Shown in pieces: positions 13,749 to 57,020 of a stretch of 64,000 nt of DNA. The notes beneath the pieces were generated by a model. It had not been told where the DNA came from and searched no databases. It was given only the letters and a program-made list of their open reading frames with translations. Both the position numbers and the translations under genes were made by a program. The stretch comes from a virus (lineage: Duplodnaviria > Caudoviricetes). Numbering within the stretch: position 1 is the stretch's first letter; each line of letters begins with the position of its first letter. The DNA is taken from positions 1 through 64,000 of the IMG/VR virus record IMGVR_UViG_3300032038_000034; one strand, written 5' to 3'.

Positions 13749-13838
13749 TTGCGACATGGGGTAGAGTCGAACTACCAACAGGTGCTTCCGTAACACATTA
13801 TATGCCTGTCTCCCGCTTTACCGTTAAGCTACCATGTC
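13749..13838 (-). ncRNA. tRNA-like RNA without a canonical anticodon arm
   Basis: Acceptor GACATGG/CCATGTC, D arm GCTT-AACGGTA-AAGC, T arm GGTAG-TTCGACT-CTACC; the anticodon region is replaced by a branched ACAGG/CCTGT segment; ends GCAA. Confidence 0.65.
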
Positions 13839-13878
13839 AAGTCCTCATTTTAGACACTCGAGGTTGTGTTATAGTTTA

Positions 13879-15087
13879 TTATCCATTTGGAAAATCTGTT
13901 GCAAATTGACTTAAAGGTCTTAATCTACCTGGACCAACATACTTCCACACATCTGCTGTTTGATATTGCGATAACAATTCGTCTTTTACATATATTGGAT
14001 ACGTTTGTCCAGTGTATGGCGTTGTTACATCTCTATTATCCTAATAACTTTCACCAAATGCATTTCCGAATGTGTTCTAATTCCAATTATCAGATGCGTC
14101 GTATACCGGAACTGTATTTGATAATACTTTTATCCAATTAATATTAGGACACTCGGTGAAAACGCTACGTTTTATAGTCGTCAATGTTTCTGGTAATACA
14201 ACATCAAGAAGTCCTTTGCAACAATGGAATGTACCTTCGCCCCACTTTGTACCGATTGTTGTAATACTTCCTAAACTTTTAACGTGTTTGATGGCAGTGT
14301 GTCTCTCCCAACTCATAATGAACGCTAGTTCACCGAGATTTTGTAGATTTGGTAGATCTATTGTGTCCGGAAAAACAGATTCTGGTACATTGCGAAATGC
14401 CTGGTCCCATATTTCGGTGATTCCGGTATTAAGTACAATTTTGTCAACCAGTCCAGAGCAATTATATAAACACTAAACGCCATATACCGTAACATTTGCA
14501 GTGTTTATAGACTTAAGTTTACTACAATCCGAAAATGCATAATAGCCCAAATAAGTAAGATTTTCCGTGTTTCCTATATTTTCAAGATTTGTACACTCTT
14601 CAAAATTCCAACGCTAGTATCCGTTGCTTCCAGAGATCTTGGTAATATTGCTCAGATCAATAGATACAAGGTTTGAACAATTGTTGAACGAATTGTTCTC
14701 CCCATTGATTTCTGTTATATTAACAAACTAAGACAGTTCATCGAACGAAGTAATTGACGAATTGTTTGCAAATTTTCCGTTAAAATTCTATATAAGCGCG
14801 ACTTGTGTGGTTGTAATTCCGGTTCCATCCCCCCAAGATTGTGTTAATATGCGTTGTACTTCTGGATCTTTAAATTCTAGATATTCTTTAGCAGCTTCTA
14901 CTCTCAATTCAGGACCAAATGTGTTATTCAAATACTAAACCTGGCTAGCATATCCGCTAGGACTCTTTAAATATCCAGAATACTACACTGTATTATTAGG
15001 ATCTATAGCCAGTTGATACATCTTCTTTATTATATTAGACGTAACCCACTCTACATTACTATTGTTCTATGTTACTGTTATATTCAT
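13879..15087 (-). CDS. BspA-type leucine-rich-repeat (LRR_5) protein, 402 aa, 9 TAG
   Basis: FKDPEVQRILTQSWGDGTGIT...ITSFDELS; repeats FNNCSNLVSIDL, FEECTNLENI, AFSDCSKLKSI, VVLPETLTTIKRSVFTECPNI. Confidence 0.85.
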
Positions 15088-15090
15088 ATG

Positions 15091-18000
15091 TTACCCTCTC
15101 CATTCAAATAGTACTTCATGCGTAATATAATCTTCAACTCTCAGGTATGTACCCACACAAAACGTGTCGTAATTTACACTGTTTGAAATAGTAATGTATG
15201 CAATTTCGCTATTTAACCACTTGTCTGTAAAATTATAAACCTGTTCGTCTGTGCCAACATTGTCCCAACGGTAACTGTAATCTGCACGGTACCACTGTGA
15301 ATAGAACTTTCCGTTTTCTATTGTTCCGTCGTTGTCTATATAAAAATCACTAAATATTTGTATTTTTTGGTGGTTTCTTACATCTATTGGTTGTGTGGTA
15401 AACGCTTTGTTACGTTCACTAAGACTCGTAATCTACGAATGCCATCCAAAAGTATAACCAATATACATAGCGCCAAAATAATTCTATGTAATCTTATCAA
15501 ACAGTTGAAATGCATTACATGTCTAAGAGGAGTCTTTTACAATCTACAACAATGTAAGATTCTTATAACCATCTAACCATACTCCACTTGGTGTAAGTAC
15601 AGTAGGTCTAATAATACTTACAGATGTAGGCAAACCTAACTCATACTTAGTAACTTTAGAATCGGCGGGTATTAATACGTTTATTGACGTTCCATTTGCA
15701 TCAACCTACTGTAAATTAGCATATCCAGATAGATCTATATCGTCCGTTAATCCAGAGCAATTCTGAATAGAGAATGTTCTAAGATCTCTTACGTTGGACA
15801 AATCTATATTTACGATACCTTCATAAACAGATGTGAGATAAGATGCTCCATCAAGATTAATTCCAGTAATATTTGGTAAAGACTTTAATATACTGTTATT
15901 ATTGTATATAAGTGTCTATAACTAATCTGGAGTGCTCGATACGGTAATCCAATTAGCGTTGCTGTTATATTGTCCACTAGTACTAATTGTTCCGGTTAAC
16001 AAACAACAAATACTCTTATAGAAGCTTGTATCAAAGTTAGCGCCAAACTGTTCTACATATGCAGCATTAATCAAGCCCCATAAAGCAGTACCTTCTTGAG
16101 CTACAACACTATCTTGTACAAGTATAAAATCTTGTGACAATGTAGTAATCATACCTCCAAGTTTTACATCTGCTGTAAGCGTATACTTAGTAGGAGTTGT
16201 AGTAACACTATTTTGTACATACAAAGGAATAAAATACTTATATGTATCGTCAGTAGCTTTGTATCCAGTAGTATAAGATAACTCTGTTACAGAACTATCT
16301 ACAAACGGGTGTTCAATTGTATTTCCAGAAGTGAATGTTGTATAATCTAATCCGTTTGTAAACGCAGAGCACAACTGTCCATCTTTGTACAGCTTGAATT
16401 TAACGTATTCTATAGGCGTCTTTTTGGGATTATTTACATACTTACCATCTTCTTTAAACTGAACTCCAAAGAGTTGATTGCCTGTTTGTTTTCCTATAAC
16501 AAATACATCGGCGTCTTTAAAATATCTATATGCACTAACACTGCTACCTGCATTTGCGGTCTTGAGATCTCCGTTTACGCTTAAGAATATTTCTTGTGGG
16601 TAATCCAAAGCTTTAATATGCACAATTACAGATCCAGATCCACTAATCAATTTAACATCGTAGTCTTGACCAGTGGTATTAGGATAAGTCTTAAGATAAT
16701 AAATAAAGTCTTCTCCAAGTTGTGTTGCTGTAATAGAACAAGCTACATTTCCACTTCCAGCAGGATATATATAAGAGTCGGAAGACATTTGCGAGTTAGG
16801 TGCTGCAAGAGAGAATTGTGTTTCTGCAAAACTTGATTGTAGTCTAAATCTTGTTGCTGAAATTCTAGCAGACGTTCCTTCCTTCAAATATATCTCACCA
16901 TCTACTACATATGCATCCTGTCCAACTGTAATTGCAGTATAATCAAGAGCTTGGTCAATAACAAGTCCACCACTATTCAACGTAAATGCATCTGTACCAA
17001 ACCAAGTAGACAAATATGATGTTTGTATACCTGTTAACGCTGTCGCATCTGTAATCATTACATAACCTTTTGCGAAGTTAGTAACGTTTGGATGAAGTTG
17101 GTAAGAAGCTGTATAATCAATATTGTTGAACTTGGCAATGTATTCCAATTCAGAATAGCTCAAGCCAGGAATGGATTCGTTATCCCAATAGATGTTTTCT
17201 ACCTGCAAGTTTCTTTCTCTAAACAAAGAATCAATATATTCTTGTAAAGTATTATATCCTTGAGTAGCTTCTACATGATTATTCCAATCTTCTGTACCCC
17301 AAGCAATAATAGAATATATCCAATCTGTTACAAACTATCTAGCACAAGCATATTTACCGGTAGTTCCTTTGAACGAAACAGATAACAAACTTCTAGGGAT
17401 TGCAGTATTTATTTCTGCCGAATCTATTGTATACTTATTATATGCTGCGGATGTAACTTCATCTACAGTGTAATCCTCCATTACTGGAGTAACACCATCT
17501 TCTTCGTATACAACATTTCCCTGTTCGTCTGTTACTTCTTGTTGATAAGTATGCGTTGTTACAGTACCTGGCGTACTTGTCCAGAATGACAGCTTATTGG
17601 GATTCCATGTCGTACTGTTAAAGGTGATAGAAGTAAGTGTATCAGGAAGTTCAAGAGTATCGTAGTCAGTACCAATAGCACTAGTTAAAGTCAATAGACC
17701 AGAACCAGCAGCGTTTAGCTTGGTTATTGTTTTTACATTCTCTAAGAATGACAAACCTTTAATACCTTTTTGGCCTCTGATGTTTAGCTCTTCAAGAGCG
17801 TTCATAGAGTTACCAGCTTCAATTGTCACAGACTTATTATTTTCTGAACCCTCTAGATGATTAGCCGTCTCTACAGAAATAGGAACACCTATATTAACTT
17901 TTGTAATAGTAGGACCTACTTCTGATGAATACGAGTTTGTCGTAGAGAATACCTGCAAACCTGCAGCGATACTACTAATATCAATCTCTCTGATAAAGTT

Positions 18001-21000
18001 CGCACCGTATATCTTAAACGGAACTTTTGCACCAGAGTTAATTATAGAAACATCAAAGTGTAAAGGATTTGTTATACTAGCTGCAAATGGTCCAAACTTG
18101 GTAGCCTCTCTTTCAAATGAGAAATATGTGTCAGCATAAGGAGTAATATCAATAGTACCATTTACGTTGTGCATTTCACAACCAAAGTACATACTCTTTT
18201 TCTTAAACTCACCAACACCCCATTTAGCATCGTAATAGTCCATTGACGTTTTTAACCACCAGTGTCTGTGTGTAGTACGAGCACCTTGTAACCAGGCCAA
18301 CCAGTCGTCATTGAATCCCGGAAGAATGTTTCCGTTATCGTCAACGTTTTGTCTGTTCTTTACATACTTAAACAAACCACTTTCATTATAGATAGACTCG
18401 GACCACTCATTCTGATATTCGTTGTCGAGCATGTCAATCACATTCTCGTACTTGAGGCCTGCTTCATATAACGCATCTGCTACTTTTGGAACAATTGTTT
18501 CCATCCAATAAGGCCAAGCTTCGAGAGCGTCAAACAACCAGTTAGATACCATTGTGTCTGCAATCTTATCATTGTTAGTATCTATTCTAGATCTACCAGA
18601 TATTGCTGCAGTATCAGCATCCATCATTGTGTTTCTGTCTATAGGAGGATTAAATGCGATGCCACCAGTGTTACGGTTACCTAGCGCAATATCCATATCC
18701 CAAGGCTCGTAGTGGAAATGTTGTCCGTCGTATGTCTTTATTTGAGCGTTACGCTCTAATGAGTCCACAAGTCCAAAACGCAGTACAAAGATATAATAAG
18801 CAGCCATCTTATACAAATCCAAATGCTAGGGAGCTTCAGCTTCAAACTTAGCTTGGTTTTGATATGTACTTACGATCCATCCTAGCCAGTCTGTAAATGG
18901 TTGTACAGTACGTCTAAATTTATCAGGATCGAATTGCTTTGATGTGGTTATTTCTTCCTTCTCTGGATATACAAGCTCAAAGTCTTCTTCCCAACCAATA
19001 GACGTTGTATCTTCGGTACGACCGCTTATAAAGTCGTCGTATCTACGTTTGCTGTTGTCAGCAACATATCCACGGAAATCTGCAAGAGTACTGTTTACAG
19101 ACAAACACTCGATTCTAAGAACTTTATCGTTGTCCCAAATCTTAGACCCATCATCTTCATCCCACAAAGAATTTCCTTCCTGATCACGTTTAACACAGAA
19201 AGGATCTTGTGCATTGTTTGTACCGTTCTTAGAATCTACTACTTTATAAATAGATCGCTGTCCATATGTGTAATCAGACTTCTTATCGTCCATAAATACA
19301 TACTGTCCTAAGAACGAAGGAGCTGTTTCTCCTTTATCTAAGTTTTGATAAAACACCAAACACGGGAATGAATCAGGAGCTGTTCTTATTGTGTATGGGA
19401 ACAATGTTTCTCCAAAATAATCTCCCCATTGTTTTCCATCTGTGTTAAATCCTCTAAACAGATTGTTTGTTGCAGCATCTGTAGTATTATCTCCAGTTTG
19501 TAGAGATATTACCTGATTTGTGGTAAACAGTTGAGGTGGAGTTCTTAGCTTATATTCGTTATCTACTTTAGCGTTAAACCAAGTGTCCTAAATAAGTCTT
19601 AAGAAGCCACCATTGTGTGTACCAGATGAATCAGCGTAGTTGGCTTGTAATACAAACTTATTAGCTGGAATTGCGTCATCCTTCATTTGATATCTGTTCT
19701 TTGTAAACGGAATATCAGCAGAAGCATCTATTGTCATTGTTGGTCTTGTTTCGTCAACAGAAGACCATGTCCACAGTTTATATGATGTAAGTGGATAGTT
19801 AAGAGTAGATTGGCCGTGCTTTCTAATTCTACCGTGCGTAACAACAAAATCTTTTGTACTATCTTTAAGATTTATTCTTTGAATATCGCACGCAACGTTA
19901 GACCCTGACTTGGTCGTGTCTCTGTCTAGCACAGCAGATAGGTTACCTTTGATTATAATAACATCTGATAAATCTGCGCATAGGTTTTGATCGATTACGC
20001 CAGATTTATAGATATTGTTTTTGGCAATGATATCCTTTTTATTTTCACTATCGTATACAAAGTTGTCGTATGCGTTTGTTATAGTAATCGCTTTAGAATA
20101 ACATCTCATACCATAAACCCTTATACCAGAGTTTACGCCGCCAATTTTAATGTTTCCAGAATTAGAATTAAATACAGACGGATTATAATCTTTCCACCCT
20201 GCTGCGCGTTCTACAATACCATTGTTAACTATAAATATGACGTTTCTCATATCTTCGCTAACATCTTGAGCAGTTCTTGGCTCTACGATAAACGCAAGTT
20301 TAACGCGCTCATTTGCCTTATAGTTTGTAGTAATCACCGGAGTGTTTTGTATGTACAAAGACGCTCTATTCGCAAATATACTAATATGCGGGTCAGAAGC
20401 GATAGTTCCACCAAGCCTAATAAGTTCTTCATCTGTAGAAGAAACATATTCGGACTCGAAATCTATTTCTACTGTCACACCTTTTGTTTCGGCATTTATA
20501 TTATAGAAAGGATTGTAATTAATAACGGCATAAGAATTTTCACCAGACAGTCTTAAACTATTCTCGTACCAACCGTTTGCAGAATTCCACTTTACGCCAG
20601 TAAACGTAGTGGAATATTCGTCATATGTCCATTCGTCTACATTATAACTATCGTTCTGTTTTCCGTAAGCCGACAGTTTTAATCTCAAATCAATACCTGT
20701 AGTTTCGGTTACGTTTAAGGAACTTTGATTGATCTATATGGGAATAGCTATGATTTCTAAATTGTCCCTATATGCCACAAGATATGTCTTCCTTCCTACA
20801 TGAGTAAAGTCCGTAGGAGTAAAAGTAAATGTTGGAGCATTTATGTTTGGTGTACATCTATATGTATTTATGAGCGTTTCTACAACATCTGTATCGTCGT
20901 CTTCGCTCATGTCTCTAAGATACCAAGACACATCATTCTGTTTTTGGTCTACATATCTAATATATCCCCAATCAAACGAAAGTTGCTCGTATTGTGTAGC

Positions 21001-22050
21001 AGTCATTTGAAATTCTGTAGGTCCAACAAGACTTATTCTGTCATTGAAATCATATTTTAGCGAAATACCGTCTATTTTACGTTCACCGCCTTGCGTATAT
21101 GCTACATTTATAATATAGTATATAAGATTGCTGTAGAAATTATAATTGTCTATTGACATCTATCCCCACACCTAAACAGTATGTAGCCCGGCTTTCATGT
21201 TTATTAAATCTTGAGAACCAGATTCTTTATAACTTGCACTAGGAGTAAGGTTGTTTTCTTCAGCAGAAGAAATGTTAAATGTAGAATTTACGGTCTCTTG
21301 AGCACCTTCTTCTAAAGTATTGTCCCCATAATAATATCTACAAGTCTTAAAGCTGAGAGGGCCCTTTATATTTCTGTTGGCATACATACCAAACTACAGC
21401 TACGACAGATTCTTTTGTAGGGCTGTATATTCCAGATCAGTTCCTATATTAAGTTGAACTGCTGTAATATATACAGTCTGTGTTGTTTCTGCACCAGATG
21501 TAGTTCCTTTAAACGACATTTTTATCGTATTGGTACCTAACGACAAATGTTGGGTCATATCCATTACAACGCTTTTATTAGCCGGATCCAGTCGTCGTAT
21601 GTCACGATAACCGTTTTCTGCAATTTCATATGTAACGTTTACAACCTCGTCTAAAGTTTGGTTCTTATCGTTCTTTACTTCCCAAGTATACCGTATCTCT
21701 GCACCACTTTGTCCCTCTATGCCGTATCTAATATAGCTTTCTCTGTTGCTAGTAATAGATATCTCTATTCCGTATTCCGAAGGGGCCACAAAGTTTGTTA
21801 TTTCAAGGTCTTTGTATGCTACAGGATCGTTAAGCCATGCCAAGTGCGCATCATAGCTACTAAACACTCTGTATAAGTGAGCGTCTCTATCTCTATATAT
21901 ATAGATCGGCTTTTTTAGCTTTTCTTGCAACAGCTCTCTAATTCTGGCACCAGACACCGGAAGATTAGATGTATCATTGCCCCCCGTAAGACTGTTTTCT
22001 CCAGACACCCAGTCTGTAAATTCGTTTATTTTTTCAGTATATAAATCCAT
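15091..22050 (-). CDS. Giant structural protein, 2319 aa, with LamG-like, CotH-kinase-like and LRR regions; TAG-recoded
   Basis: Seven track fragments (21400, 21172, 20734, 19588, 18826, 17335, 15922) share one frame, separated only by TAG; ends TAA 15091; motifs ANYADSSGTHNG, FLGQYVFMDDK, DSLERN...PWDMDIALG. Confidence 0.85.
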
Positions 22051-22051
22051 G

Positions 22052-22240: not shown

Positions 22241-22246
22241 AGTTTA

Positions 22247-23248: not shown

Positions 23249-23253
23249 AGTTA

Positions 23254-25315: not shown

Positions 25316-25389
25316 TGGTCTTCCCGCAACGACTCGAACGCTGACCAAGAGGGTTAGAGCCTCCTGTGCTACCATTACACCACGGGACG
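25316..25389 (-). tRNA. Amber suppressor tRNA (anticodon CUA), tRNA-Gln-like body
   Basis: CGTCCCG TG GTGT AATGGT AGCAC A GGAGG CT-CTA-AC CCTCT TGGT CAGCG TTCGAGT CGTTG CGGGAAG A CCA. Confidence 0.93.
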
Positions 25390-25442: not shown

Positions 25443-25530
25443 TTGCGGCCCTGGGAAGATTCGAACTTCCTACATTCCCGCCGGAACAACCGACATATAA
25501 CAGTGCCTACCACAATTTATACTATGATCA
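25443..25530 (-). pseudogene. Degenerate tRNA-like element
   Basis: Perfect T arm GGAAG-TTCGAAT-CTTCC followed by CAGGGCC-GCAA; no matching 5' acceptor strand or anticodon loop. Confidence 0.4.
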
Positions 25531-31348: not shown

Positions 31349-32098
31349 ATGAACTACAGATTAACAAATTTCGAGATTAAGACTGCCCAGGGCAATCGTA
31401 TCTCAGGACAAGAGAACAATGGTTACCTAAGTTGCACAGCATTCAATCCTATGAATCGCTTCGAGAAGTCACACAACATTGCCATCTTCGACAAAGGCAT
31501 GGTCGAGTACTACAAGACCAAACTTCCTGTATCTAAAGGTGGACTCTTACCAGATGAAGGCTGGGACGAGAACGCTATGGATGCACAGGACCGCATCTTT
31601 GTCAATGGTTGCACAGTAGAGTATGACCTCGGAGCCCTGTATTGCCGTAAGTATACATCAGACATCATCGATGCCAATGGTGTTACTGTACCTGGCAAAG
31701 AAGCAGGCAAGGTTATCTGCGACGCAAACGGTAATCCCATTGTCTTCAGCAAGATTTCTGTGTTCTGTCAGTACGCATTCAAGACTGAGGCCATATTCGA
31801 CGATTTCGGTATGCCAGTCATTGACCCAGCTACAGGTAACTCAAAGATTAAGATTATCCGCGACGAAACCGGTAAGCCCATCGAAGAGTGGGTAGCAGGC
31901 TGGTCTCCTATCGAAGTAGGCGAGTCTATGCGTAGACTTCTGACACCGTACACTGCAAGTATTGATACCCAATCTATGGGCGCTGCTAATCAGCAAGCAC
32001 AGCCTGGTGTCCACGTCGAGGAATCTCCTCAGATATTTGGACCTCAGGGCGGAGCTGCACAACCAGCTGCACAACCAGCAGGTGCTACACAGCAGTAG
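31349..32098 (+). CDS. Hypothetical protein with Q/A/P-rich tail; ends in TAG
   Basis: 249 aa, biased codons; terminator 25 nt after the TAG. Confidence 0.8.
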   Translation: MNYRLTNFEIKTAQGNRISGQENNGYLSCTAFNPMNRFEKSHNIAIFDKGMVEYYKTKLPVSKGGLLPDEGWDENAMDAQDRIFVNGCTVEYDLGALYCRKYTSDIIDANGVTVPGKEAGKVICDANGNPIVFSKISVFCQYAFKTEAIFDDFGMPVIDPATGNSKIKIIRDETGKPIEEWVAGWSPIEVGESMRRLLTPYTASIDTQSMGAANQQAQPGVHVEESPQIFGPQGGAAQPAAQPAGATQQ

Positions 32099-32166: not shown

Positions 32167-32361
32167 GTAGAAGTTCATACATACTATATGTTTAATCGTC
32201 TGAATCTAATCCGCACATTGCGGAACGATTATAATTCTATCATTATGAAACGTTTTTAGAACATCACGCGTCAGTGAAAACCTGTGTTAGACGTGACAGT
32301 GCATAGAACTCCAGTGCCAGAAGAGTAGGAGTTGACAGCTGGAAATAGACAGCAATTATTC

Positions 32362-32407
32362 TCTCTATAAATGGCCTTGCGTGGTTCGAATCCACGATAG
32401 AGAACAA
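32362..32407 (+). ncRNA. tRNA minihelix-like element (acceptor + T arm only)
   Basis: TCTCTAT-11 nt-CGTGG-TTCGAAT-CCACG-ATAGAGA-A-CAA. Confidence 0.55.
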
Positions 32408-32689
32408 AATGCTGACAACATGCAAAAAACTCAATATAAAATATCCAGTAAATCCGGTGTCTGTAGCTACACTAGGGCAGTTTATAAGTCCCAGCCGGCG
32501 AAATTTGGATTTCCAAGATGTTGAGGACGCCAGTTTCTTATTTAACGGTTCATGACAGTTTAATAAGTTTTAGGCGTAAAACACAAGCAAAATAGGTGTC
32601 GACTGGCCAATTCTGCCGCGTCGATATGTGTTTAATATCTGTCACACTTACCACTTAACCAACGGTGGAGAGGACAGCCTCTGACAGAT

Positions 32690-33139
32690 ATAAAGTGGTA
32701 GGTTTGATTGTAAGCAGCGTTGAGAGACCACTGAAAACGAAAAACAATCAAGTTGTGCGTAAGATAAACTGAAATGCTCAAAACCTTGTTATTCCGAGGG
32801 GAAATCAGAATCGCATACCTGTGCGTTAGACTAGCTGAAATGGGTCAAGGTAATCACACTCCTCTCAAGTGTGGTCGTATATGAACATTGTTACACTTGG
32901 TGTTCTGATGCAACATACGAAAGCAAGCGTGTTTCCTCCCTTGGTGGGCCTAAGTCATTGAGTTGCGTCGATGATATGGGATATACATGATAGCAGAGAT
33001 GCGTGTGTATGTTTGGAATCAGTGAAAGCATTTTGAGAGTTTAAATGCAAGTAGCCTCAGTGTGTTCGTTAAGTCGAACAAGCGCAACACTGTGTTAACA
33101 GACGGGGGATTTGCTCGAAAGGGCATTTCCCTCGTTTTT
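32690..33139 (+). ncRNA. Large structured RNA candidate (ROOL-like)
   Basis: ORF-free; stems TTGATTGT/ACAATCAA, CAGTGT/ACACTG, TGTTCG/CGAACA; long-range AAACT..CTCAAAA (32766-32783) / TTTTGAGAGTTT (33031-33042); terminal hairpin plus U-tract. Confidence 0.5.
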
Positions 33140-33311
33140 ATATTAACACATTATGATTGATAATAGATACTCTGTTTGCATATCTTTAAAAACCTGTTTT
33201 TTCATGGTATGTTTTGTTCATAGTTGTTTTGGTTATAGCGATAACCACAACCATACTTGTCTGGGAAGATAGGTATGTTTTGATTGAAATCAATTCTAAA
33301 TAACATATATT

Positions 33312-33404
33312 ATGAAGTACATCAATAAAGAAACATTTTGGAGCATCTTGCTTGTATCTCTAATGATGTTTTGGACATATGTAGTAATTTATATATTCCA
33401 TTAA
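33312..33404 (+). CDS. Small membrane peptide (30 aa)
   Basis: MKYINKETFWSILLVSLMMFWTYVVIYIFH; same ATGAAGTACATCAA start as the next gene. Confidence 0.45.
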   Translation: MKYINKETFWSILLVSLMMFWTYVVIYIFH

Positions 33405-39859: not shown

Positions 39860-40090
39860 GTAAGAATCTTAGCGTGTGTGAGGTAAACTGTTGTGACACG
39901 GGTTCGACCCCCGTACGCTCCACTAACAATAATAAAATTGGGGCGTAATTGGTATAGAACGCAGTGGAAGTAAACACATTAAGCGCTTTGATATAAAAAT
40001 TAACTGGCAATATTAACATTGCAGACTACACGGGCCTCCAGGAGGCAGCGTGAAGTCGGTGTACAGGCTACCTAAGTGCCTGTGAAACGA
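39860..40090 (+). ncRNA. ssrA: Circularly permuted (two-piece) tmRNA
   Basis: Acceptor piece ends GACACGGGTTCGACCCCCGTACGCTCC-A (39922) BEFORE the 5' piece GGGGCGT (39940); G3:U70 pair; tag ORF 40006-40053 GNINIADYTGLQEAA*. Outer ends approximate. Confidence 0.85.
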
Positions 40091-40148
40091 GAGTGAGTTA
40101 AACTGGGCATCTTCGGATGCGGTGGGTTCGAGTCCCACACTCACTCCA
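40091..40148 (+). ncRNA. tRNA-like element lacking D arm and anticodon
   Basis: GAGTGAGT/ACTCACTC 8-bp stem, GCATC-TTCG-GATGC, T arm GTGGG-TTCGAGT-CCCAC. Confidence 0.65.
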
Positions 40149-40212: not shown

Positions 40213-40286
40213 GGTTCCTTAGCTCAGCTGGATAGAGCAACAGATTTCTAATCTGTGGGTCAAAGGTTCGAATCCTTTAGGAATCA
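40213..40286 (+). tRNA. tRNA-Arg(UCU)
   Basis: GGTTCCT...ACAGA-TT-TCT-AA-TCTGT...AAAGG-TTCGAAT-CCTTT-AGGAATC-A. Confidence 0.93.
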
Positions 40287-40307
40287 CAAATTTAAAACAT
40301 AATCAAT

Positions 40308-40703
40308 ATGAGAACAATATCCTACGATTATTTCTGTAACATCTCAGTAAAATTAGAAAAATTTGTTACAGAGAACCCAAAAGTATTAAGTTCACCAGGC
40401 AAATTGCAAAACAAATTACACCTTGCATCAAATAATTGTAAGGAATTACACAAAATTGCTCAACTTTATTGGAGTGGTTGTGTACCATTGAGAAGATTAG
40501 TATTGTCCATCATTGTTGTAAAATTTTGGAAAGATAGTGTAATATTTGAAAATTGTATGGGAGATTGTGCAGTATACCAATATATGGTAGCTAGATACGA
40601 ACCACATCTGCCATATGCAAGGGCAGATATATACACAAAAGCAAAAAGCTTGGAAAAATTTATGTTTGATACATGGGAAAACAAGGATATCGAGAAATGT
40701 TGA
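40308..40703 (+). CDS. Hypothetical protein
   Basis: 131 aa track ORF. Confidence 0.65.
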   Translation: MRTISYDYFCNISVKLEKFVTENPKVLSSPGKLQNKLHLASNNCKELHKIAQLYWSGCVPLRRLVLSIIVVKFWKDSVIFENCMGDCAVYQYMVARYEPHLPYARADIYTKAKSLEKFMFDTWENKDIEKC

Positions 40704-47477: not shown

Positions 47478-47479
47478 GT

Positions 47480-48070: not shown

Positions 48071-48086
48071 CGATCCCGTGGGATCA

Positions 48087-48252: not shown

Positions 48253-48344
48253 GCTTTGTATTAATTTGTTTTGATGCAAGGTACGTGTAGGTAATCTCGA
48301 ATTCAACTAATTAACGGATGTCTAACTAAATCAAATGTTTATAT

Positions 48345-48887: not shown

Positions 48888-49004
48888 AAAATAATCCCGA
48901 TCAGAAAGCTGGTGCATGTGTTTATACACATGAGCGGATCGTTCCCGTAACTGATCACAATATTTCCCAATAAATAACATGTTTAACAAATTCATTTATC
49001 AAAG

Positions 49005-49175
49005 ATGAAAACAAGATACAAACAACTTATCGTTTCATTTGCTCTGTCTAACGAAAGATTAGAGCGAGAAACAAAAGATTACGATATCCTTCATGTCGTA
49101 AACACTACCGAAGGTATCGTATACGTAATGAAGAAGAAAAGCTTCATTAAGAGACTTATTAACAAGATTTTTTAA
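49005..49175 (+). CDS. Small hypothetical protein (56 aa)
   Basis: MKTRYKQLIVSFALSNERLE...KRLINKIF; TTATCAAA leader. Confidence 0.55.
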   Translation: MKTRYKQLIVSFALSNERLERETKDYDILHVVNTTEGIVYVMKKKSFIKRLINKIF

Positions 49176-49195
49176 TTTAATTATATTATCAAAAT

Positions 49196-49909: not shown

Positions 49910-49938
49910 CGTATGTTTAACTTAATCGCAGAAATAAT

Positions 49939-50712
49939 ATGGGAAGTAGCAACGTACGTATTAAGGTTCGTAGAAGAAAAGTAGCGAATCTTGCAGCCTA
50001 TAGCCGTCAGCATACCGTTAACAATATACCAAAGAAGAAACCAACGTTTGAACAGAAGGATCTTCTCAAGGTAGAGTTCAATGATGGTAAGGATGTACAT
50101 TTTGTACAAAAGAGCACCAAATGGGACGAGAAAAAATATCCACAACCTAAGAATCTCCGTAAGAGATGCCACGGCCAAAAGTGGGTAAAATACAAAGACG
50201 GTACCGTAGAACTTAAGAAGTGGGATCATCCGTCAGAGTTCCCTAATCCACGCGACTATCAAAAGAAGTTGTGGAAGAACCTAGGCAAAGCCGCCAAGAT
50301 GAAGGCATATGAGGACGAGAAGATGAAGAAATGGGAGCGTAAGCACCCTAAGCCTTGTCCTACTGACGACCTCTTTAAAGACGAATTTATCCCTATGTGG
50401 GAGAAGGAACGTGAAGAGGCCTTGATACGCATTAGAGACTTCGTCGTCTCGATGTTTGACAAATTACCGCTGACTGGACGCTTTAAGATGAGCGAAAAGA
50501 ATGCGGTCTACCAAGAGAAGAAGATAGCCGACATAAAGGATATCAACGGGGAAGGTCATAAAGTAAACGAACTTGGACCTGAATCCAAACTTCTCAATAA
50601 GGCCCAAAAGATTACTAATAAGACACACGCGAAGAATCCTTCGCTAGTGGCTACTAATCTGAAGGACCACAAGCGCAAGAAAGGTCGTATGATATTGCCA
50701 AAAGCGGCATAA
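49939..50712 (+). CDS. Lys/Arg-rich hypothetical protein
   Basis: 257 aa, very basic. Confidence 0.8.
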   Translation: MGSSNVRIKVRRRKVANLAAYSRQHTVNNIPKKKPTFEQKDLLKVEFNDGKDVHFVQKSTKWDEKKYPQPKNLRKRCHGQKWVKYKDGTVELKKWDHPSEFPNPRDYQKKLWKNLGKAAKMKAYEDEKMKKWERKHPKPCPTDDLFKDEFIPMWEKEREEALIRIRDFVVSMFDKLPLTGRFKMSEKNAVYQEKKIADIKDINGEGHKVNELGPESKLLNKAQKITNKTHAKNPSLVATNLKDHKRKKGRMILPKAA

Positions 50713-50929
50713 ATACGATAGATAAAAGATAGGAATAGGTACACCTCTCAATGATGTGTAAAATACTGATAAATATGCGTATCGGCAGACCTAAGAGTGT
50801 AGGGATCGCTATTTGGTTAATGGTTAATGTCACTCTATTGCCAGGATAAATCCAAGTAAACTCCGATGTCCTATCTTTCTAATATAATGCACAGTAAAGC
50901 CTCTACATAGTACGTAACTGTGTGTAAAA

Positions 50930-51003
50930 GAGTGAGTTAGCTCAGTTGGTAGAGCAGCGAGTTAAGTCGGCTATGTCGCAGGTTCGAGCCCTGCACTCAC
51001 TCC
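50930..51003 (+). ncRNA. tRNA-like RNA with defective anticodon arm
   Basis: GAGTGAGT/ACTCACTC stem; normal D and T arms; anticodon arm AGCGA-GTTAAG-TCGGCT (6-nt loop, bulge). Confidence 0.65.
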
Positions 51004-51030
51004 TAGTATTAACTAAAGAACCTATGAGTC

Positions 51031-52923
51031 ATGTGGATACGAAATCGAATAGTCTACGTATACGACGTAGAGATATTCCCTAATTGTTTCCACTGTTGCT
51101 GTAAAGATACAGAGACCGGTAGACTATACAAATTTGAAATATCAGAAAGAAGGAATCAGCTAGAAGATCTAGTTGATTTCTTTTATTATACACACGAAGA
51201 TTATTTCAAATTGTTTTGTGGTTACAATAATCATCACTATGATGATGTAATCATAAACTATATGATAGACTACAGGAAAAAACTAGCAAGTTTACCTTAC
51301 TGGAAAATTTGTAATTCTTTGTTTAATCTATCTACTACGATAGTGGAAGACGAAGATGGGAGCCGTGAGAAGCTCAAACGATGGAAGTATGCACATTGCT
51401 TCGAATCGATGGACTTGCTCACAATGCAGTTTAGTCAAAAGCTTAGAGTGGGTTTGAAAACCATGCAGGTTACAATGCACTATAAGAATGTCTATGAGTA
51501 CGAAGGAGACTTCGATCAACCTTTGCCTGTAGATAAAATTGACGAAATGATAGCATACAACATAAACGATGTTGAGTCGACTACAGAGTTATTAAACCGC
51601 TTGAAAGAGCAAATCGATTTGAGGTTGTTTATCGAGAAAGAACACGGCATAGATTGTCTTTCTATGGACAGTGTTAAGATGGCAGAGACCTTCCTGTTAG
51701 AAGAATATTCTAAGAAGTCAGGTATTCCTAAAAATGTTATAAAGGAAATGCGTTCTCCTATGGATTATATTCCGTTGAAGGATGTTATTCTGCCATTTAT
51801 AAAATACAAAAATCCAAAGTTACAAGACGTTCTTGAGGATATGAAGAAACAGGTCGTATACTCTAAAGAGCGCAAAGGCTATGAGAAGAAGTTTGTTCTC
51901 TCAAATGTGGTGTATTCAGTAGGTGTAGGTGGAATCCATTCCATCCACACTCCAAAGATATTCCTCCCTAAAGATGACGAGCACATTGGACACGCCGATG
52001 TTACGTCCATGTATCCGTCCTTATTGATTAAATATCAATTTGGCCCTCGTCACTTAGGAAAACTTTTTTGCGATATATTCGAAGGTATTTACTATGAACG
52101 AATAGAAGCAAAACGTACTGGTCAAAAGATTAAGAATCTGTTTCTAAAGATCGTGCTTAATTCTCCTACAGGAAAGATGCAACAGGAGGTAAGTTGGATG
52201 TACGATCCGTTCAATGTTTTTAAGATTAGGATAAACGGTCAACTAATTCTTTTAATGCTCGTAGACAGGCTTTTAGAGCTCGGCTGTGAAATTATACAGG
52301 TGAACACTGACGGCGTTGTCTACAGGGCTAAAAACAGCCTTAAAGATGGAATTGAGAGAGCCATTAAAGAGGTAGAACAGATCACTCAACTTGGTTTTGA
52401 AGTGGATGAGTACGAAGCATTCTATCAATATGCCATCAATGACTACTTTGGGGTCATGAAGGGATATTCAGAGTCGAAAGACCCAGATCTGATAGAGAGA
52501 AAAGGTATGTTTATAACTAAAACAAAGCTTGGGAAGGGATTAGCACCTGTAATCATTCCCAAAGCTGTTATAGAATACTTTGTCAACAAGATACCGGTGA
52601 CAGAAACTATTGAGAAGGATAGAGATATCCGTGATTTCTTAATGTCTCAAGCTGTAGATAAGAAATTTAAAGTTGTACACGGTGAAAAACCTATACAACG
52701 TATCAATAGATTTTATGCAAGCACAGATGGTCCTTATCTCTATAAAGTAGATCCAAATGGAGACAGAGATAAAACCAATATGTTAACTAAATCAGGAGTA
52801 ACAATCCTGAATAAATTTGATGATACCCCGATAGAAGATCGCAAGATTAACTATCGTTACTATATCAGTGAAGCCAAAAAAGTGATAGCAGACTTTACTG
52901 AACAACAGCTATCGTTATTTTAG
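51031..52923 (+). CDS. polB: DNA polymerase, family B
   Basis: ExoI YDVE, ExoII GYNNHHYD, ExoIII YNINDV, motif A DVTSMYPS, motif B KIVLNSPTG, motif C NTDG; C-terminal QQLSLF; ends TAG TAA. Confidence 0.95.
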   Translation: MWIRNRIVYVYDVEIFPNCFHCCCKDTETGRLYKFEISERRNQLEDLVDFFYYTHEDYFKLFCGYNNHHYDDVIINYMIDYRKKLASLPYWKICNSLFNLSTTIVEDEDGSREKLKRWKYAHCFESMDLLTMQFSQKLRVGLKTMQVTMHYKNVYEYEGDFDQPLPVDKIDEMIAYNINDVESTTELLNRLKEQIDLRLFIEKEHGIDCLSMDSVKMAETFLLEEYSKKSGIPKNVIKEMRSPMDYIPLKDVILPFIKYKNPKLQDVLEDMKKQVVYSKERKGYEKKFVLSNVVYSVGVGGIHSIHTPKIFLPKDDEHIGHADVTSMYPSLLIKYQFGPRHLGKLFCDIFEGIYYERIEAKRTGQKIKNLFLKIVLNSPTGKMQQEVSWMYDPFNVFKIRINGQLILLMLVDRLLELGCEIIQVNTDGVVYRAKNSLKDGIERAIKEVEQITQLGFEVDEYEAFYQYAINDYFGVMKGYSESKDPDLIERKGMFITKTKLGKGLAPVIIPKAVIEYFVNKIPVTETIEKDRDIRDFLMSQAVDKKFKVVHGEKPIQRINRFYASTDGPYLYKVDPNGDRDKTNMLTKSGVTILNKFDDTPIEDRKINYRYYISEAKKVIADFTEQQLSLF

Positions 52924-52953
52924 TAACCAACTTAGAGCCCCCGAGTCAATAGT

Positions 52954-53520
52954 ATGATTATTGAAGTAAATACAAGACTTCTGGATGCAAATCCAGAACT
53001 GAATTCAAATCAATTATTGTTCCTAAGTATTGTATTGGATAAGAATCAGCCAAAATATCAAGACGTCCAAAAGGTCATCAACCTTGTCAGTGATGACGAT
53101 ATACAGTACTTAGTCGACCAACATTTGGTCACCTCGATAGAGAGAGGTGATTCAGTTACATATGAGCCAACGGAAGAGTTAAAGCAAAGTATAGCACCTA
53201 AGAAGGACTATTTTGACCTCTTCTACGATATGTATCCCGTGTATGTTGTTCGAGCAGATGGCAGTAAATCTTATTTGCGTGCGAACGTAAACAAGTGTCG
53301 TCATTTCTTTAACCTCAAATGTGGTCGTAGCTCAGCTATGGCAGAACATATCATCAAGTGTCTGGATTATGAAATATCTAAACGGATGCGTGAAGGTAGC
53401 CTTAGTTATATGATGACTATGTGGAATTGGTTAACACGTAGTCAATGGGAGGCCATTGAAGATGAAATGAACGACAAGAAGCAAACACCAGTAAACTCTT
53501 ATGGAACAGAACTTATCTAA
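52954..53520 (+). CDS. Replication-associated protein (putative initiator/helicase loader)
   Basis: Between PolB and DnaB; FDLFYDMYP...WNWLTRSQWE pattern. Confidence 0.6.
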   Translation: MIIEVNTRLLDANPELNSNQLLFLSIVLDKNQPKYQDVQKVINLVSDDDIQYLVDQHLVTSIERGDSVTYEPTEELKQSIAPKKDYFDLFYDMYPVYVVRADGSKSYLRANVNKCRHFFNLKCGRSSAMAEHIIKCLDYEISKRMREGSLSYMMTMWNWLTRSQWEAIEDEMNDKKQTPVNSYGTELI

Positions 53521-54424
53521 CATACGTCCAATGAGCGTTGTTGCTCAAGAAGCAATCAACTATATCAAAGGACGAAGAGAGCATAACATTGTTTCTCTTA
53601 AAACTAGATGGGAAAAGTTTAATAAGCAGTGTATGGGAGGTATAGAACCAAATACCGTTTACACCATAGCTGGTATATCTGGAACTGGTAAGTCGAGCTG
53701 GGTTAATAGTTTGACAACCGATATAATTGATTTGAATCCAACTGAAGACATAGTCATTCTAAACTTCTCGTTAGAGATGGTTGGATTTAGGCAAGTAGGA
53801 AGGACGCTTTCGAGTAAACTTCGTAAAACGACTTCTGACTTGTATAGTTCTGAAAAGGACCTGGATGACGAAACGTTTAAACGTGTTATTGCAGTATCTA
53901 ATCAGCTGAAGGAATATCCTATATATTTTGTGGATAACCCAAGCACTCCTTCAGAGGTAGAAAAAACTATAAAGAATTTCTATGAAACGTATGTAAAGGG
54001 TTCTAAGAAACACTTTATTATCGTATACGATCACACGTTGCTGACTAAACAAGTAGGTTCTGTAATAGAGACTACTTCGGAACTTGAGCGAGTATTTATA
54101 CAAGCTAAAAAGTATCCGATGACATCAGTGATTCAGATTGCACAAATGAATAGAAATATCGAGTCTTCAGAAAGGATAAATAACCCATCGAGTCATTACC
54201 CGATGCGAAGTGATTTATCGTCATCTGATGCGATGTTTCAGGCAAGTGATTACGTGCTTGTCATGCATAGACCAGAGATATTGAACATTCAAGAGTACGG
54301 ACCAAACCGTTTACCTACACAAAATAAGGTTTACATGCATATGTTGAAAAACAGAGACGCAGGCAAACCTTGTATTCTTGAATTCGAGAACGATTTGATG
54401 TACAATAACCTGATCGAACGTTAA
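53501..54424 (+). CDS. dnaB: DnaB-family replicative helicase
   Basis: AGISGTGKS, FSLEM, IVYDH, IAQMNR, SDLSSSDAMFQASD, KNRDA. Confidence 0.92.
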   Translation: MEQNLSNIRPMSVVAQEAINYIKGRREHNIVSLKTRWEKFNKQCMGGIEPNTVYTIAGISGTGKSSWVNSLTTDIIDLNPTEDIVILNFSLEMVGFRQVGRTLSSKLRKTTSDLYSSEKDLDDETFKRVIAVSNQLKEYPIYFVDNPSTPSEVEKTIKNFYETYVKGSKKHFIIVYDHTLLTKQVGSVIETTSELERVFIQAKKYPMTSVIQIAQMNRNIESSERINNPSSHYPMRSDLSSSDAMFQASDYVLVMHRPEILNIQEYGPNRLPTQNKVYMHMLKNRDAGKPCILEFENDLMYNNLIER

Positions 54425-54465
54425 TGCTCAGATGACAAGTATTAACAATTAAAATAGGCTGATTT

Positions 54466-54933
54466 ATGATTACGACATATACTTTTGGTAAGAAGAATAA
54501 TAATAGTTACAATCCCTTTCACACTAGTAGCAAACCCAACTATTCTAAGATTCTTGATGATATCATTATTGCTGATGTAATTAAGAAGAATAGTTATCTG
54601 TTCAATAAGACGGACAATACGGCAGCTATCGACACCACTCTCCTGGGTGCATCGTACGATTCTGATTTCGATAAGGCTGTTAAGTTCCTTGCCAATTACA
54701 AGAAGCCGAAGAAGAATTATATTCTCCCCTTCGCGCTGAATAAAATGTATACTCTTTCTGACGGTACTCCCATTATCTTCTACGATGATGAGATTCAGAT
54801 TGGTTTTGATACGTATAGCTACGCTGATTTCAGCGACATTTCGTTCATTAACGCTCTGACACCTAAGAAAAAGAAGATTATTATTGATATCTATACGTTT
54901 GGCAACGCTAATATCAATATTAATATTCTTTAA
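54466..54933 (+). CDS. Hypothetical protein
   Basis: 155 aa track ORF. Confidence 0.75.
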   Translation: MITTYTFGKKNNNSYNPFHTSSKPNYSKILDDIIIADVIKKNSYLFNKTDNTAAIDTTLLGASYDSDFDKAVKFLANYKKPKKNYILPFALNKMYTLSDGTPIIFYDDEIQIGFDTYSYADFSDISFINALTPKKKKIIIDIYTFGNANININIL

Positions 54934-54954
54934 TCATTAGAACTATAAGTCAAT

Positions 54955-55701
54955 ATGATAACATTACCTACTCAAAAAGTTCCTGCAACTTCAACTAATC
55001 CGCAGTATTTAATCTTATACGGTCTTCCTAAGAGCGGTAAGACGAGTGCTGTAGCTCAGTTGGAGAATAATCTCATCATAGACCTTGAAGGCGGATCTAA
55101 GTTTATTGATGCGCTAGCTGTTCAGGCACGTACCATCAATGATCTTGGAGAGATTGCACAAGCCATTCGAGCTAAGAACGATGAGGTAGGACATAATTTT
55201 TATAGACACATTACTATCGACAATGCTACACGTCTCGAAGATATTTGTATGAGCTACGCGTGCACACTTTACAGACAGACCGAATTAGGAAAGAACTGGA
55301 AAGGAAACGATGTTACAACACTTGCACGAGGAGCAGGTTATAAGTATTTAAGAGATGCAGTAAAGAAGGTAATTGATATGTTCAAGGACCTTTGTGACGA
55401 ATTTATTCTGATAGGACACGTTAAAGATTCTATTACTGATAAGGATGGACAAGAAGTCAATGCTAGAGAAATCGACCTTGTTGGAAAACTCGGACGAATT
55501 GTATGCGGACTCGCAGATGCGGTCGGCTACGTTTATCGAAAAGAAAATGAGACTCATGTCTCGTTTAAAGGCGGCGATGGAGACTCCGTCCTCGAAGCAA
55601 GAGCGAAACATCTTGCGGGAAAAGATATCATCATTTCTACAGGAAATGAAGACGGATCAATAACAACCTATTGGGATCGTGTTTACAAACCAGAAGTATA
55701 A
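54955..55701 (+). CDS. AAA_24/Sak4-like ATPase
   Basis: LILYGLPKSGKT, IIDLEGG, ITID, ILIGH, ADAVGYVYR. Confidence 0.85.
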   Translation: MITLPTQKVPATSTNPQYLILYGLPKSGKTSAVAQLENNLIIDLEGGSKFIDALAVQARTINDLGEIAQAIRAKNDEVGHNFYRHITIDNATRLEDICMSYACTLYRQTELGKNWKGNDVTTLARGAGYKYLRDAVKKVIDMFKDLCDEFILIGHVKDSITDKDGQEVNAREIDLVGKLGRIVCGLADAVGYVYRKENETHVSFKGGDGDSVLEARAKHLAGKDIIISTGNEDGSITTYWDRVYKPEV

Positions 55702-55718
55702 CTCAGAGTTTAAGAATT

Positions 55719-56327
55719 ATGTATAGTACAAAAACAGCAACAACAAATAACCAGGAGTTTAATAGCTCCTATATGCCTGTAGGCATCAACGAGAATGTAA
55801 CCTTGAAAGAGGTTAATGTAAACAAAACACCTAATGGTCGTGACTTCTTGGAGATAATCTTTGAGAATGAGAACGGTCAGACAGCAACTATGACAGAGTG
55901 GAAGAACGAAAAGAATCAGTGGATTGCTACCGACGAAGATTTGCAGCGTCGTGACGATGCACAGTTTGGTCGTATTCTGCAGGTTATAGATGCAGCAAAC
56001 GGTAACCATACCGACTTCGAAGGAAGTTCGTTTGTGGAGATGATTAACTGGGTAAAAGCTCAGCTTGAACCAGCTACAAATCCTGCAAACATGCGTCAAG
56101 GTATGCGTTTGAAGGTTGTTTACGACAAGAAGGGTTATACGAAAGTTAGCTCTCTTGGTACTTTTGTTGAACCTATGAGTGTAGAAGAGTCTCAGATTAA
56201 GCTTTGGAAGAATGATCTTCTTGAGCGTCCTGTTGTAGCAGATGTTGAACCTGCTGCAGATCCGCTCGGTGTAACTACCGCTCCGGTGACTGAGACTTCA
56301 ACAGGTGCTGACGACCTGCCTTTTTGA
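55719..56327 (+). CDS. Single-stranded DNA-binding protein (putative)
   Basis: Follows the Sak4-like gene; ends GADDLPF; true ATG at 55719. Confidence 0.75.
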   Translation: MYSTKTATTNNQEFNSSYMPVGINENVTLKEVNVNKTPNGRDFLEIIFENENGQTATMTEWKNEKNQWIATDEDLQRRDDAQFGRILQVIDAANGNHTDFEGSSFVEMINWVKAQLEPATNPANMRQGMRLKVVYDKKGYTKVSSLGTFVEPMSVEESQIKLWKNDLLERPVVADVEPAADPLGVTTAPVTETSTGADDLPF

Positions 56328-56424
56328 TTCGTGGTATTATAAACCACGAAAAATGTATATCGGAAACGGTTTACTAGAGCAAATGGTCAGTGGTGGAGGT
56401 TGACTTCTGGTCAACCCTTGGTTA

Positions 56425-56522
56425 AGTATAGATGCTAAAGCGGCCGAGTACCCTAGAGGGAAAGCATTTGACGTCTAAGGCGTGCGGTGCACACAGAGGT
56501 TCGAGTCCTCTCTATACTACAA
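56425..56522 (+). ncRNA. tRNA-like RNA (acceptor + T arm, non-canonical interior)
   Basis: AGTATAG/CTATACT-A-CAA; AGAGG-TTCGAGT-CCTCT. Confidence 0.55.
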
Positions 56523-56540
56523 TAATTTAAATTAAGTACT

Positions 56541-56819
56541 ATGATATCAGAAAAGTTAAGAAGATGTTCTAATTGTGGAAGGTTCATGAATGAAGGTTAT
56601 CTTCTTGGGGTTTATTACGCCTGTAGTGATAAGTGTAGAAATAAAATTTACAGAAAACATAATGGCGTAAAAACAGACGAAGAGGCTAAAATAATGTACC
56701 TGAAAGACTGTTATATGCTTGAAGATAAGGACATCGAAGGACTTACTTCTGAGCAAATATCAGAGAAATACAAAGATTGTGAAATATCAGATGATGTATT
56801 TTGGACACAGTGGTGGTAA
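56541..56819 (+). CDS. Small Zn-finger-like protein
   Basis: CSNC...CSDKC. Confidence 0.7.
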   Translation: MISEKLRRCSNCGRFMNEGYLLGVYYACSDKCRNKIYRKHNGVKTDEEAKIMYLKDCYMLEDKDIEGLTSEQISEKYKDCEISDDVFWTQWW

Positions 56820-56948
56820 ATAATTATGAAGAAAAAAGATTATCACAAACCAGGATATTGGAAAGACTGGTATTGGAACAAAGGCGGACGAGAAAAAGTC
56901 CAAGCAACACGTTATATTGCAGAATATGAACGTGAAAAAAGGAAAAAT

Positions 56949-57020
56949 GGTTGTGAGGCTTAAAAGTAGGAATAAAGCTAGTGCGCGCGCTAAGTGGTTC
57001 GAATCCACCCACAACTTCAA
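56949..57020 (+). ncRNA. tRNA-like RNA with a 4-nt loop in place of the anticodon
   Basis: GGTTGTG/CACAACT, GCTT/AAGC, TAGTG-CGCG-CGCTA, GTGG-TTCGAAT-CCAC. Confidence 0.6.

Follow-up and report, generated by a model that had tools for sequence, protein, structure and literature searches.

The DNA analysed here (hereafter the window) is the first 64 kb, 64,000 nucleotides, of the 102,772-bp genome of a Suoliviridae-like rumen crAss-like phage (IMG/VR record IMGVR_UViG_3300032038_000034), whose closest named relatives are the crAss-like phages cr272_1 and cr273_1 (Crassvirales, Suoliviridae, Buhlduvirus). Dispersed through it are seven tRNA-like elements, hereafter mimics, which keep an acceptor stem and T arm and have no canonical anticodon arm; their neighbours include polB, the primase gene and a gene for transfer-messenger RNA (tmRNA) (Table 1). 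The mimics were proposed in a first-pass annotation of the sequence, and all seven were present at or within the positions given there, each on the strand of its flanking genes.

Structure and placement of the mimics

Complete pairing of both the acceptor stem (7/7) and the T stem (5/5) was found at 13753-13838(-), 32362-32403, 40092-40145, 50931-51001 and 56425-56518; in these five the two stems abut directly and the T stem is closed by a TTCGA loop. Element 7 (56949-57016) retains 7/7 acceptor and 4/5 T-stem pairs, and element 2 (25447-25507(-)) retains 6/7 acceptor pairs, with one A.G, and 5/5 T-stem pairs, making it the single exception to a paired acceptor stem that the first-pass annotation had allowed for. 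The span first given for element 2 (25443-25530) takes in a separate hairpin upstream of it. A canonical anticodon arm (5-bp stem, 7-nt loop, U33) was present in 0/7 elements, both in folds and on direct reading. The earlier description of this region as absent, capped by a UUCG or 4-nt loop, or branched was borne out by the folds, which add a 5-nt loop (25447) and an unpaired interior (50931), and the tails, said to be mostly N-CAA, are N-CAA in 6/7 elements and C-CTA in 1/7.

The replacement of the anticodon arm takes several forms. In element 1 the arm gives way to a region of ~37 nt with a weak hairpin, which the Rfam alignment treats as a 31-nt insertion; in element 5 the anticodon-stem positions are unpaired and Infernal uses a local end across that arm; and in element 7 a 4-bp stem with a CGCG loop stands in its place. 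Element 3 has no anticodon arm at all, an 11-nt linker (AAATGGCCTTG) being all that it contains besides its 7-bp acceptor and its T arm. The T arm of element 2 reads GGAAG-TTCGAAT-CTTCC.

The placement of mimics directly before polB and primase and directly after the tmRNA coding piece, also noted in the first-pass annotation, was confirmed. The polB ATG (51031) lies 30 nt from element 5 and the primase ATG (57041) 24 nt from element 7, the 5' strand of which overlaps the end of a 45-codon open reading frame (ORF). Element 4 follows the permuted tmRNA gene as defined by Rfam, beginning 38 nt past the stop codon of the tmRNA tag and right after the terminal hairpin of the coding piece. Element 1 is located between the late ORFs 13879-15087 and 13136-13654, element 2 has the suppressor tRNA 57 nt downstream, and element 6 ends 22 nt upstream of a 92-amino-acid (aa) ORF at 56541.

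Table 1. Coordinates of the seven mimics and of neighbouring RNA genes within the window.
Feature	Coordinates	Strand	Description
Element 1	13752..13838	-	87 nt including discriminator G, then CAA; 7-bp acceptor GACATGG/CCATGTC, canonical D arm, T arm
Element 2	25446..25507	-	62 nt; acceptor GGCACTG/CAGGGCC, small hairpin with 5-nt loop, discriminator G then CAA
Element 3	32362..32404	+	42-nt minimal mimic plus discriminator A, then CAA; z = -2.1
Element 4	40091..40146	+	8-bp acceptor including G(-1):C73, UUCG-capped hairpin, T arm, then CAA; z = -3.4
Element 5	50930..51002	+	G(-1):C73, acceptor AGTGAGT/ACTCACT, perfect D and T arms
Element 6	56425..56519	+	95 nt; 7-bp acceptor, T arm, long/branched interior
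Element 7	56949..57017	+	acceptor GGTTGTG/CACAACT, D-like arm, 4-bp T stem, discriminator T then CAA
Suppressor tRNA, anticodon CTA	25316..25389	-	canonical, not a mimic; ARAGORN and Rfam, 49.1 bits
tRNA-Arg(TCT)	40213..40287	+	canonical; ARAGORN and Rfam, 69.6 bits; same A-CAA trailer as mimics
Permuted two-piece tmRNA gene	39874..40053	+	RF04321, 53.7 bits; acceptor piece then coding piece, tag ending ...LQEAA

Standard tRNA detection handled these elements unevenly. Against the Rfam tRNA model RF00005, with a gathering threshold of 29 bits, elements 5 and 1 scored 45 and 43 bits, both by skipping the anticodon arm; element 4 (40092-40146, 22.4 bits) and element 6 (56442-56519, 13.5 bits) fell below the threshold, and elements 2, 3 and 7 gave no match. 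ARAGORN called just one of the seven, 50931-51003, as 'tRNA-Leu(taa)', and its tmRNA span stretches to 40144, absorbing element 4; both the call and the extended span are annotation artefacts of mimics. By ARAGORN and Rfam, the canonical tRNAs in the window number three (the suppressor, tRNA-Glu and tRNA-Arg), and the other 39 kb of the genome contained no additional matches to tRNA models. No phage-encoded tRNA-processing enzyme was found among the 20 ORFs scanned near the elements.

The suppressor tRNA lies in a genome with two coding regimes. In-frame TAG codons split the late genes at 2126-24618(-) and 60943-63999(-), and reading TAG as sense joins the minus-strand ORF fragments at 2-25 kb and 61-64 kb into long genes, as in the fused gene 15091-22050 (2319 aa, 15 TAG codons); the late arm is therefore amber-recoded. 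The plus-strand replication arm uses the standard code.

Conserved slots and the acceptor/T half

The mimics were compared across about 130 related phage loci, using a scan pattern in which a 7-bp acceptor directly adjoins a 5-bp T stem closed by a TTCRA loop. Over 985 kb of related loci this gave 67 strict matches on the gene strand (23 of them ARAGORN tRNAs, 44 not), versus 4 on the opposite strand and 1-7 in shuffled sequence. All of the DNA compared yielded 106 unique strict elements, made up of 36 tRNAs and 70 mimics of 37-134 nt. The two classes have a common N73-C74-W-A trailer, with C74 present in 59/70 mimics and 36/36 tRNAs against a background C frequency of 0.18, and A76 in 49/70 and 32/36, respectively. 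The 45 nt upstream of the elements had a mean folding energy of -7.8 kcal/mol, versus -5.6 kcal/mol for random 45-mers (p = 7e-5), and most elements of the window have a hairpin upstream, with 1-6 nt between its end and the element; such a hairpin could cap the upstream RNA following an RNase P cut. Among short mimics, 18/22 have GG in the linker after the acceptor strand, which might stand in for G18-G19 of the D loop at the tRNA elbow.

Three positions in the genome were found to be held repeatedly by such elements, with occupants that change between relatives. The polB slot, anchored on the polB start codon independently of RNA structure, has a T arm plus acceptor ending 25-31 nt before the ATG in 33/61 unique relatives, versus 1.2% of random positions, and these relatives span 62-99% PolB identity. 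The tmRNA-3' slot, anchored on the tmRNA tag sequence, has an element a few nt after the terminal hairpin of the coding piece in 24/24 unique relatives. In the primase slot, a tRNA-shaped element precedes a conserved leader in 6/6 complete genomes. Canonical tRNAs occupy each slot in some genomes, with differing identities: tRNA-Met, tRNA-Ile or tRNA-Ser before polB in a few relatives, tRNA-Leu(TAA) before primase in one genome (G001) and tRNA-Met after the tmRNA in 3/24. The other occupants are mimics, unrelated-looking in most polB slots, and in the tmRNA slot with interiors of 14-49 nt, some bearing 3-5-nt 'anticodon' loops. The leaders running from mimic to start codon are highly conserved in relatives, both for polB (51003-51033, CTAGTATTAACTAAAGAACCTATGAGTCATG) and for primase (57018-57043, CAATACAAAAGAGCTTATAAGCCATG).

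The remaining elements also have counterparts. Several relatives carry a member of the element-1 family in their late operon, the suppressor tRNA of three genomes (G001, G003 and G004) has mini-elements next to it or ahead of it, and mini-elements of 41-42 nt with the architecture of element 3 occur in relatives at other places. True orthologues of element 3 were not found, the neighbouring ORF 31349-32098 having given no relatives as a query; ORF 40308-40703, beside element 4, likewise gave none, and the slot of element 4 was reached via the tmRNA tag.

Base pairing within the slots was assessed by locating the T loop by sequence alone and comparing the observed pairing with that obtained after swapping partners between sequences or supplying foreign 3' strands. 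In the tmRNA slot, the T stem was fully paired (5/5) in 83% of elements versus 25% with swapped partners, and the 3' acceptor strand found a perfect (7/7) upstream partner in 71% versus 5% for a foreign strand. The corresponding values in the polB slot, which contains 32 distinct T-stem sequences, were 64% versus 6% for the T stem and 49% versus 11% for the acceptor. In the element-1 family, RNAalifold found 10 pairs with compensatory double changes among ten relatives; the acceptor and T stems covary, the D arm is invariant and the inner hairpin is variable and partly covarying. The pattern in real tRNAs is the reverse. In tRNA-Glu and tRNA-Arg the D and anticodon arms are near-identical across carrier genomes and variation is limited to the acceptor, with the exception of one of four tRNA-Arg copies, which has a different anticodon stem; mimics vary most at the D/anticodon region, where real tRNAs vary least.

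These observations uphold the selective retention of the acceptor/T half proposed in the first-pass annotation, in that across relatives these stems covary and the slots persist, whereas the anticodon region has disappeared, contracted or grown. Among the findings that would speak against it, the annotation had named normal tRNAs at orthologous loci together with random mutations; the former was found in some slots, and the mutation spectrum was not random.

Several further features were seen around the slots. Both the polB and primase leaders contain a GAACC...GAGTC motif. In many relatives the polB-slot element is preceded, at a distance of ~8 nt, by a hairpin (50897-50922 in the window) whose stem covaries and whose loop reads TACGTAA; it may cap a 3' end or serve in regulation. 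The motif ACGTAAC, which occurs upstream of element 5, showed no enrichment in the window. A small hairpin before element 1 (13839-13880; L145-L154) has a covarying stem (CCTC/GAGG versus CCCT/AGGG) and a conserved loop, ...CTGTMTAAMA..., and a related motif lies 3' of the element; these may be late-operon signals. An ORF-poor stretch of ~1-1.2 kb (window 32200-33400) starts right after element 3 and may be a non-coding RNA with its 5' end set by that element.

Proposed processing signals and rival explanations

What RNase P, RNase Z and the CCA-adding enzyme recognise in a tRNA is the elbow and the stack of acceptor and T arm, not the anticodon, and they accept acceptor/T-arm minihelices. Of the two functions suggested in the first-pass annotation, punctuation of transcripts or decoys, the former fits the anatomy best, given the fixed junction positions, upstream hairpins and tRNA trailer. 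We accordingly give roughly even credence to a reading, drawn from this anatomy, in which the mimics are phage "t-elements", i.e. signals for RNase P and 3'-end processing that punctuate long transcripts. Their non-canonical folds and conserved T-arm motif, at the same-strand border of an RNA or gene, are features shared with t-elements described elsewhere. We infer both the cleavage of the elements and the enzymes responsible.

Under such a mechanism, the elements would be transcribed within long phage RNAs and would fold into an acceptor/T-arm stack, often with a GG linker mimicking the D-loop side of the tRNA elbow, so that the tRNA-maturation enzymes of the host could handle them as pre-tRNAs. 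RNase P would cut at the 5' end of the element, releasing the upstream mRNA or tmRNA coding piece, usually hairpin-ended, and RNase Z or an equivalent would cut past the discriminator, freeing the downstream mRNA (polB or primase) with its short conserved leader. Cutting at element 4 would give the coding piece of the two-piece tmRNA a defined 3' end. Since these enzymes need the top half only, the anticodon domain could degenerate, contract to a tetraloop, disappear or grow without harm, and a slot could be filled equally well by a real tRNA or by a mimic.

Transcript data and promoters were also considered. Rumen metatranscriptome runs were found to contain the phage, and four of them were compared with 39.3-57.1 kb as assembled, mixed-strain Logan contigs, which cannot show RNA termini; the contigs both bridge and stop near elements, and a drop in depth after 56525 is uninterpretable in such assemblies. 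A Sigma-70 promoter scan of 39-58 kb gave 51 hits versus 45 in shuffles, i.e. no excess.

Four points weigh against transcript processing as the role of the mimics. At least one metatranscriptome contig is continuous across element 5 into polB. A cut 20-30 nt before a start codon would leave an mRNA with a 5'-monophosphate, which is destabilising in many bacteria. In cr272_1, the polB-slot element (L031 / L155:10210-10295) keeps its acceptor and two hairpins while its 'T loop' reads ATTATAA, indicating that the TTCGA consensus is dispensable in some relatives. Lastly, processing alone leaves unexplained the conservation of two interiors. The ~40-nt interior of the element-6 family (window 56443-56481, CCGAGTACCCTAGAGGGAAAGC...GACGTCTRAGGCG) is invariant in six relatives (including L083, L084, L085, L086 and L020) in which the acceptor and T stems differ (alignment A2), and this family sits before polB, before primase or in a slot of its own, depending on the phage; the element-1 family has conserved single-stranded blocks, GGAGACA...GCACCT.

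Those interiors, together with an extra G(-1):C73 pair found in 16/24 tmRNA-slot elements and in element 5 (the GAGTGAG acceptor lineage), keep roles in trans open. G-1/C73 is the main identity set of histidyl-tRNA synthetase (HisRS) and works in microhelices. It is doubtful, on balance, that the elements are trans-acting small RNAs built on a tRNA scaffold, in which at least elements 6 and 1 would have a functional interior and the frame would serve excision or stability; in a variant of this proposal, elements 4 and 5, as members of the G(-1):C73 family, might be charged by HisRS. The invariance of the element-6 interior despite differing stems, the presence of its family in three different slots, and the combination of single-stranded blocks with a covarying inner hairpin in element 1 count in favour of such RNAs, as does the recurrence of G(-1):C73. 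However, most mimic interiors vary freely, and a trans-acting role is therefore not a general explanation. The G(-1):C73 pair is limited to one homologous lineage, where it may be merely an eighth base pair passed on by descent; neither a target nor a partner was identified, and Rfam gives nothing more than a weak likeness to tRNA.

Excised, CCA-tailed mimics might instead act as decoys or sponges, soaking up nucleases, toxins or enzymes that read the acceptor/T half or the CCA end and so shielding real tRNAs, which we regard as unlikely. The idea is made more plausible by Cas12a3, a defence nuclease that grips a tRNA by its acceptor stem and T arm as it cleaves the CCA tail, and that still cleaves tRNAs after stepwise loop elimination (PMC12851939). 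The retained acceptor stem, T arm and C74 trailer of the mimics are what this nuclease engages, the mimics are at least as numerous as tRNAs per genome, and a decoy role is compatible with a processing role. A decoy nevertheless needs no fixed position, and the mimics hold the same junctions in relatives with 62-99% PolB identity, which argues that decoy function would not account for everything. Nor do the acceptor sequences, which differ widely among relatives, appear to imitate a particular host tRNA, and no such defence is known for the phage host.

The presence of canonical tRNAs in the same slots of some relatives raises the question of whether mimics are simply wrecks, tRNA genes that are often gained and then decay into functionless pseudogenes. 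Occupants of the tmRNA slot can be ranged in what looks like a series of degeneration, starting with full cloverleaves that bear 3-5-nt 'anticodon' loops and ending in 45-nt forms, and a few slot occupants have degraded T loops. Decay should strike all arms, yet compensatory changes keep the acceptor and T stems paired; the tmRNA and primase slots are never empty, C74 is kept, and several genomes retain minimal forms of 41-45 nt, the stems of which covary. Neutral decay is thus disfavoured by the covariation already described, and we consider it very unlikely.

A further explanation places the function in DNA, with tRNA-like sequences as hot spots at which gene cassettes and homing-endonuclease genes are swapped. 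Some shuffling at mimics is apparent. The Cys-rich 92-aa ORF downstream of element 6 (56541-56819(+)) looks like a recent cassette insertion at a mimic, being absent in a relative with 99% PolB identity, in which the next small ORF comes straight after element 6 (L082:6018-6112). Extra ORFs lie between the mimic and polB in two relatives (L006 and L016), in one metatranscriptome contig a 3' half of the element-6 type runs straight into the primase leader, and the element-6 family recurs in its three slots. What recombination requires, however, is sequence identity and not the upkeep of base pairs, and stem sequences differ from one relative to the next and covary. The strict strand bias and tRNA-type trailer also point to a role at the RNA level, of which cassette shuffling may be a by-product. 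Recombination joints are for these reasons held to be highly improbable as the function of the mimics. The extra ORF in L006 and L016 has a Cys-rich motif resembling those of HNH homing endonucleases.

A combined model was also framed, in which Crassvirales use a modular system of RNA punctuation made from tRNA top halves, the excised CCA-tailed mimics go on to act in trans, either as sponges or as chargeable His-type G-1:C73 minihelices, and the element-6 family carries a conserved effector module on its tRNA scaffold. This model is put forward as a speculation with a low chance of being correct as a whole.

A number of other identities were tried and rejected. Element 6 was considered as a suppressor or Gln tRNA (TCTAAGG varying to TCTGAGG among relatives), but it has no anticodon stem, and the variable A/G position is matched by a U within a conserved helix of the interior. 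Element 1 is not an intron-containing tRNA or one with a long variable arm, as no 7-nt loop or stem is found in 10 relatives. The inclusion of element 4 in the tmRNA, suggested by the ARAGORN span and a weak cyano_tmRNA alignment, was dismissed as the element is self-paired and its slot holds tRNA-Met in some relatives. Remnants of the attachment (att) sites of integrated elements were set aside because both acceptor strands are present.

Significance and relation to known systems

Full-text literature searches turned up no account of mimics of this kind, either in crAss-like phages or in others. Studies of crAss phages use tRNAscan cut-offs (PMC7886860) or mention only low-score 'pseudogenes', and in the RefSeq record of cr272_1 the gaps corresponding to mimics are unannotated. 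Elements of the proposed kind, tRNA-like processing signals, have been described in organelles, archaea and eukaryotic viruses; what appears to be new is their systematic deployment in fixed slots by an abundant order of phages. Few viruses of the gut and rumen are as abundant as the Crassvirales, and the maturation of their long transcripts is almost unstudied. If the mimics are processing signals, the phage delegates the transcript ends of its replication genes and tmRNA to the RNase P and tRNA 3'-end machinery of its host. This would constitute a bacterial-virus counterpart of organellar tRNA punctuation that uses just the half of the tRNA that the enzymes read, and the relatives would form a natural series revealing the minimal tRNA shape that these enzymes accept. 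There are also consequences for annotation, as element 5 is called tRNA-Leu and element 1 exceeds the Rfam tRNA threshold though neither can decode, and the remaining mimics are missed by the tRNAscan cut-offs of crAss studies (PMC7886860). The mimics additionally flag junctions of gene swapping between phages.

Among known RNAs, the mimics resemble canonical phage tRNAs (RF00005) in their acceptor stem, T arm, occasional D arm and N73-C74-W-A trailer, and differ from them in lacking the 5-bp/7-nt anticodon arm, the 2/7 that reach the threshold doing so by skipping it. A second comparison is with the tRNA-like domain (TLD) of tmRNA, which is also known in phages, mycobacteriophage DS6A carrying a TLD-only gene (PMC4131195). 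Like these TLDs, the mimics are phage-encoded acceptor/T modules without an anticodon, and element 4 adjoins a tmRNA gene. The true acceptor piece of that gene is 39874-39925, and its ACGCTCC pairs with GGGGCGT of the coding piece (39941), including G3:U70. Element 4, unlike a TLD, pairs GAGTGAGT with ACTCACTC internally and not with the coding piece, and has no G3:U70.

In function, the closest parallels are systems in which a tRNA or tRNA-like fold determines the ends of its neighbours. In mitochondrial tRNA punctuation and in bacterial tRNA-mRNA cotranscripts, for example that of the E. coli tufB operon, tRNA units within polycistronic RNA set the ends of adjacent RNAs via RNase P and RNase Z; these units are working tRNAs, whereas most phage mimics have no usable anticodon arm. 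In the tRNA-microRNA units of murine gammaherpesvirus 68 and in the mascRNA of MALAT1, too, a tRNA-like fold with no part in decoding brings in RNase P or RNase Z, and a neighbouring RNA is thereby set free. Those handles are eukaryotic, with the herpesvirus ones linked to RNA polymerase III, and have no sequence relation to the phage mimics. The plant mitochondrial t-elements, found by the motif GGTTCRANYCC, guide RNase P and RNase Z to their cutting sites at the termini of mRNAs (Forner et al. 2007, PMC1920247), and are likewise non-canonical tRNA-like folds that adjoin mRNAs and carry the same T-arm motif, with canonical tRNAs serving other junctions. Unlike the phage mimics, however, they are organellar, few per genome and have experimentally mapped ends, whereas the phage set, known from sequence, forms a graded series down to 41-nt forms with rapid turnover of occupants between relatives.

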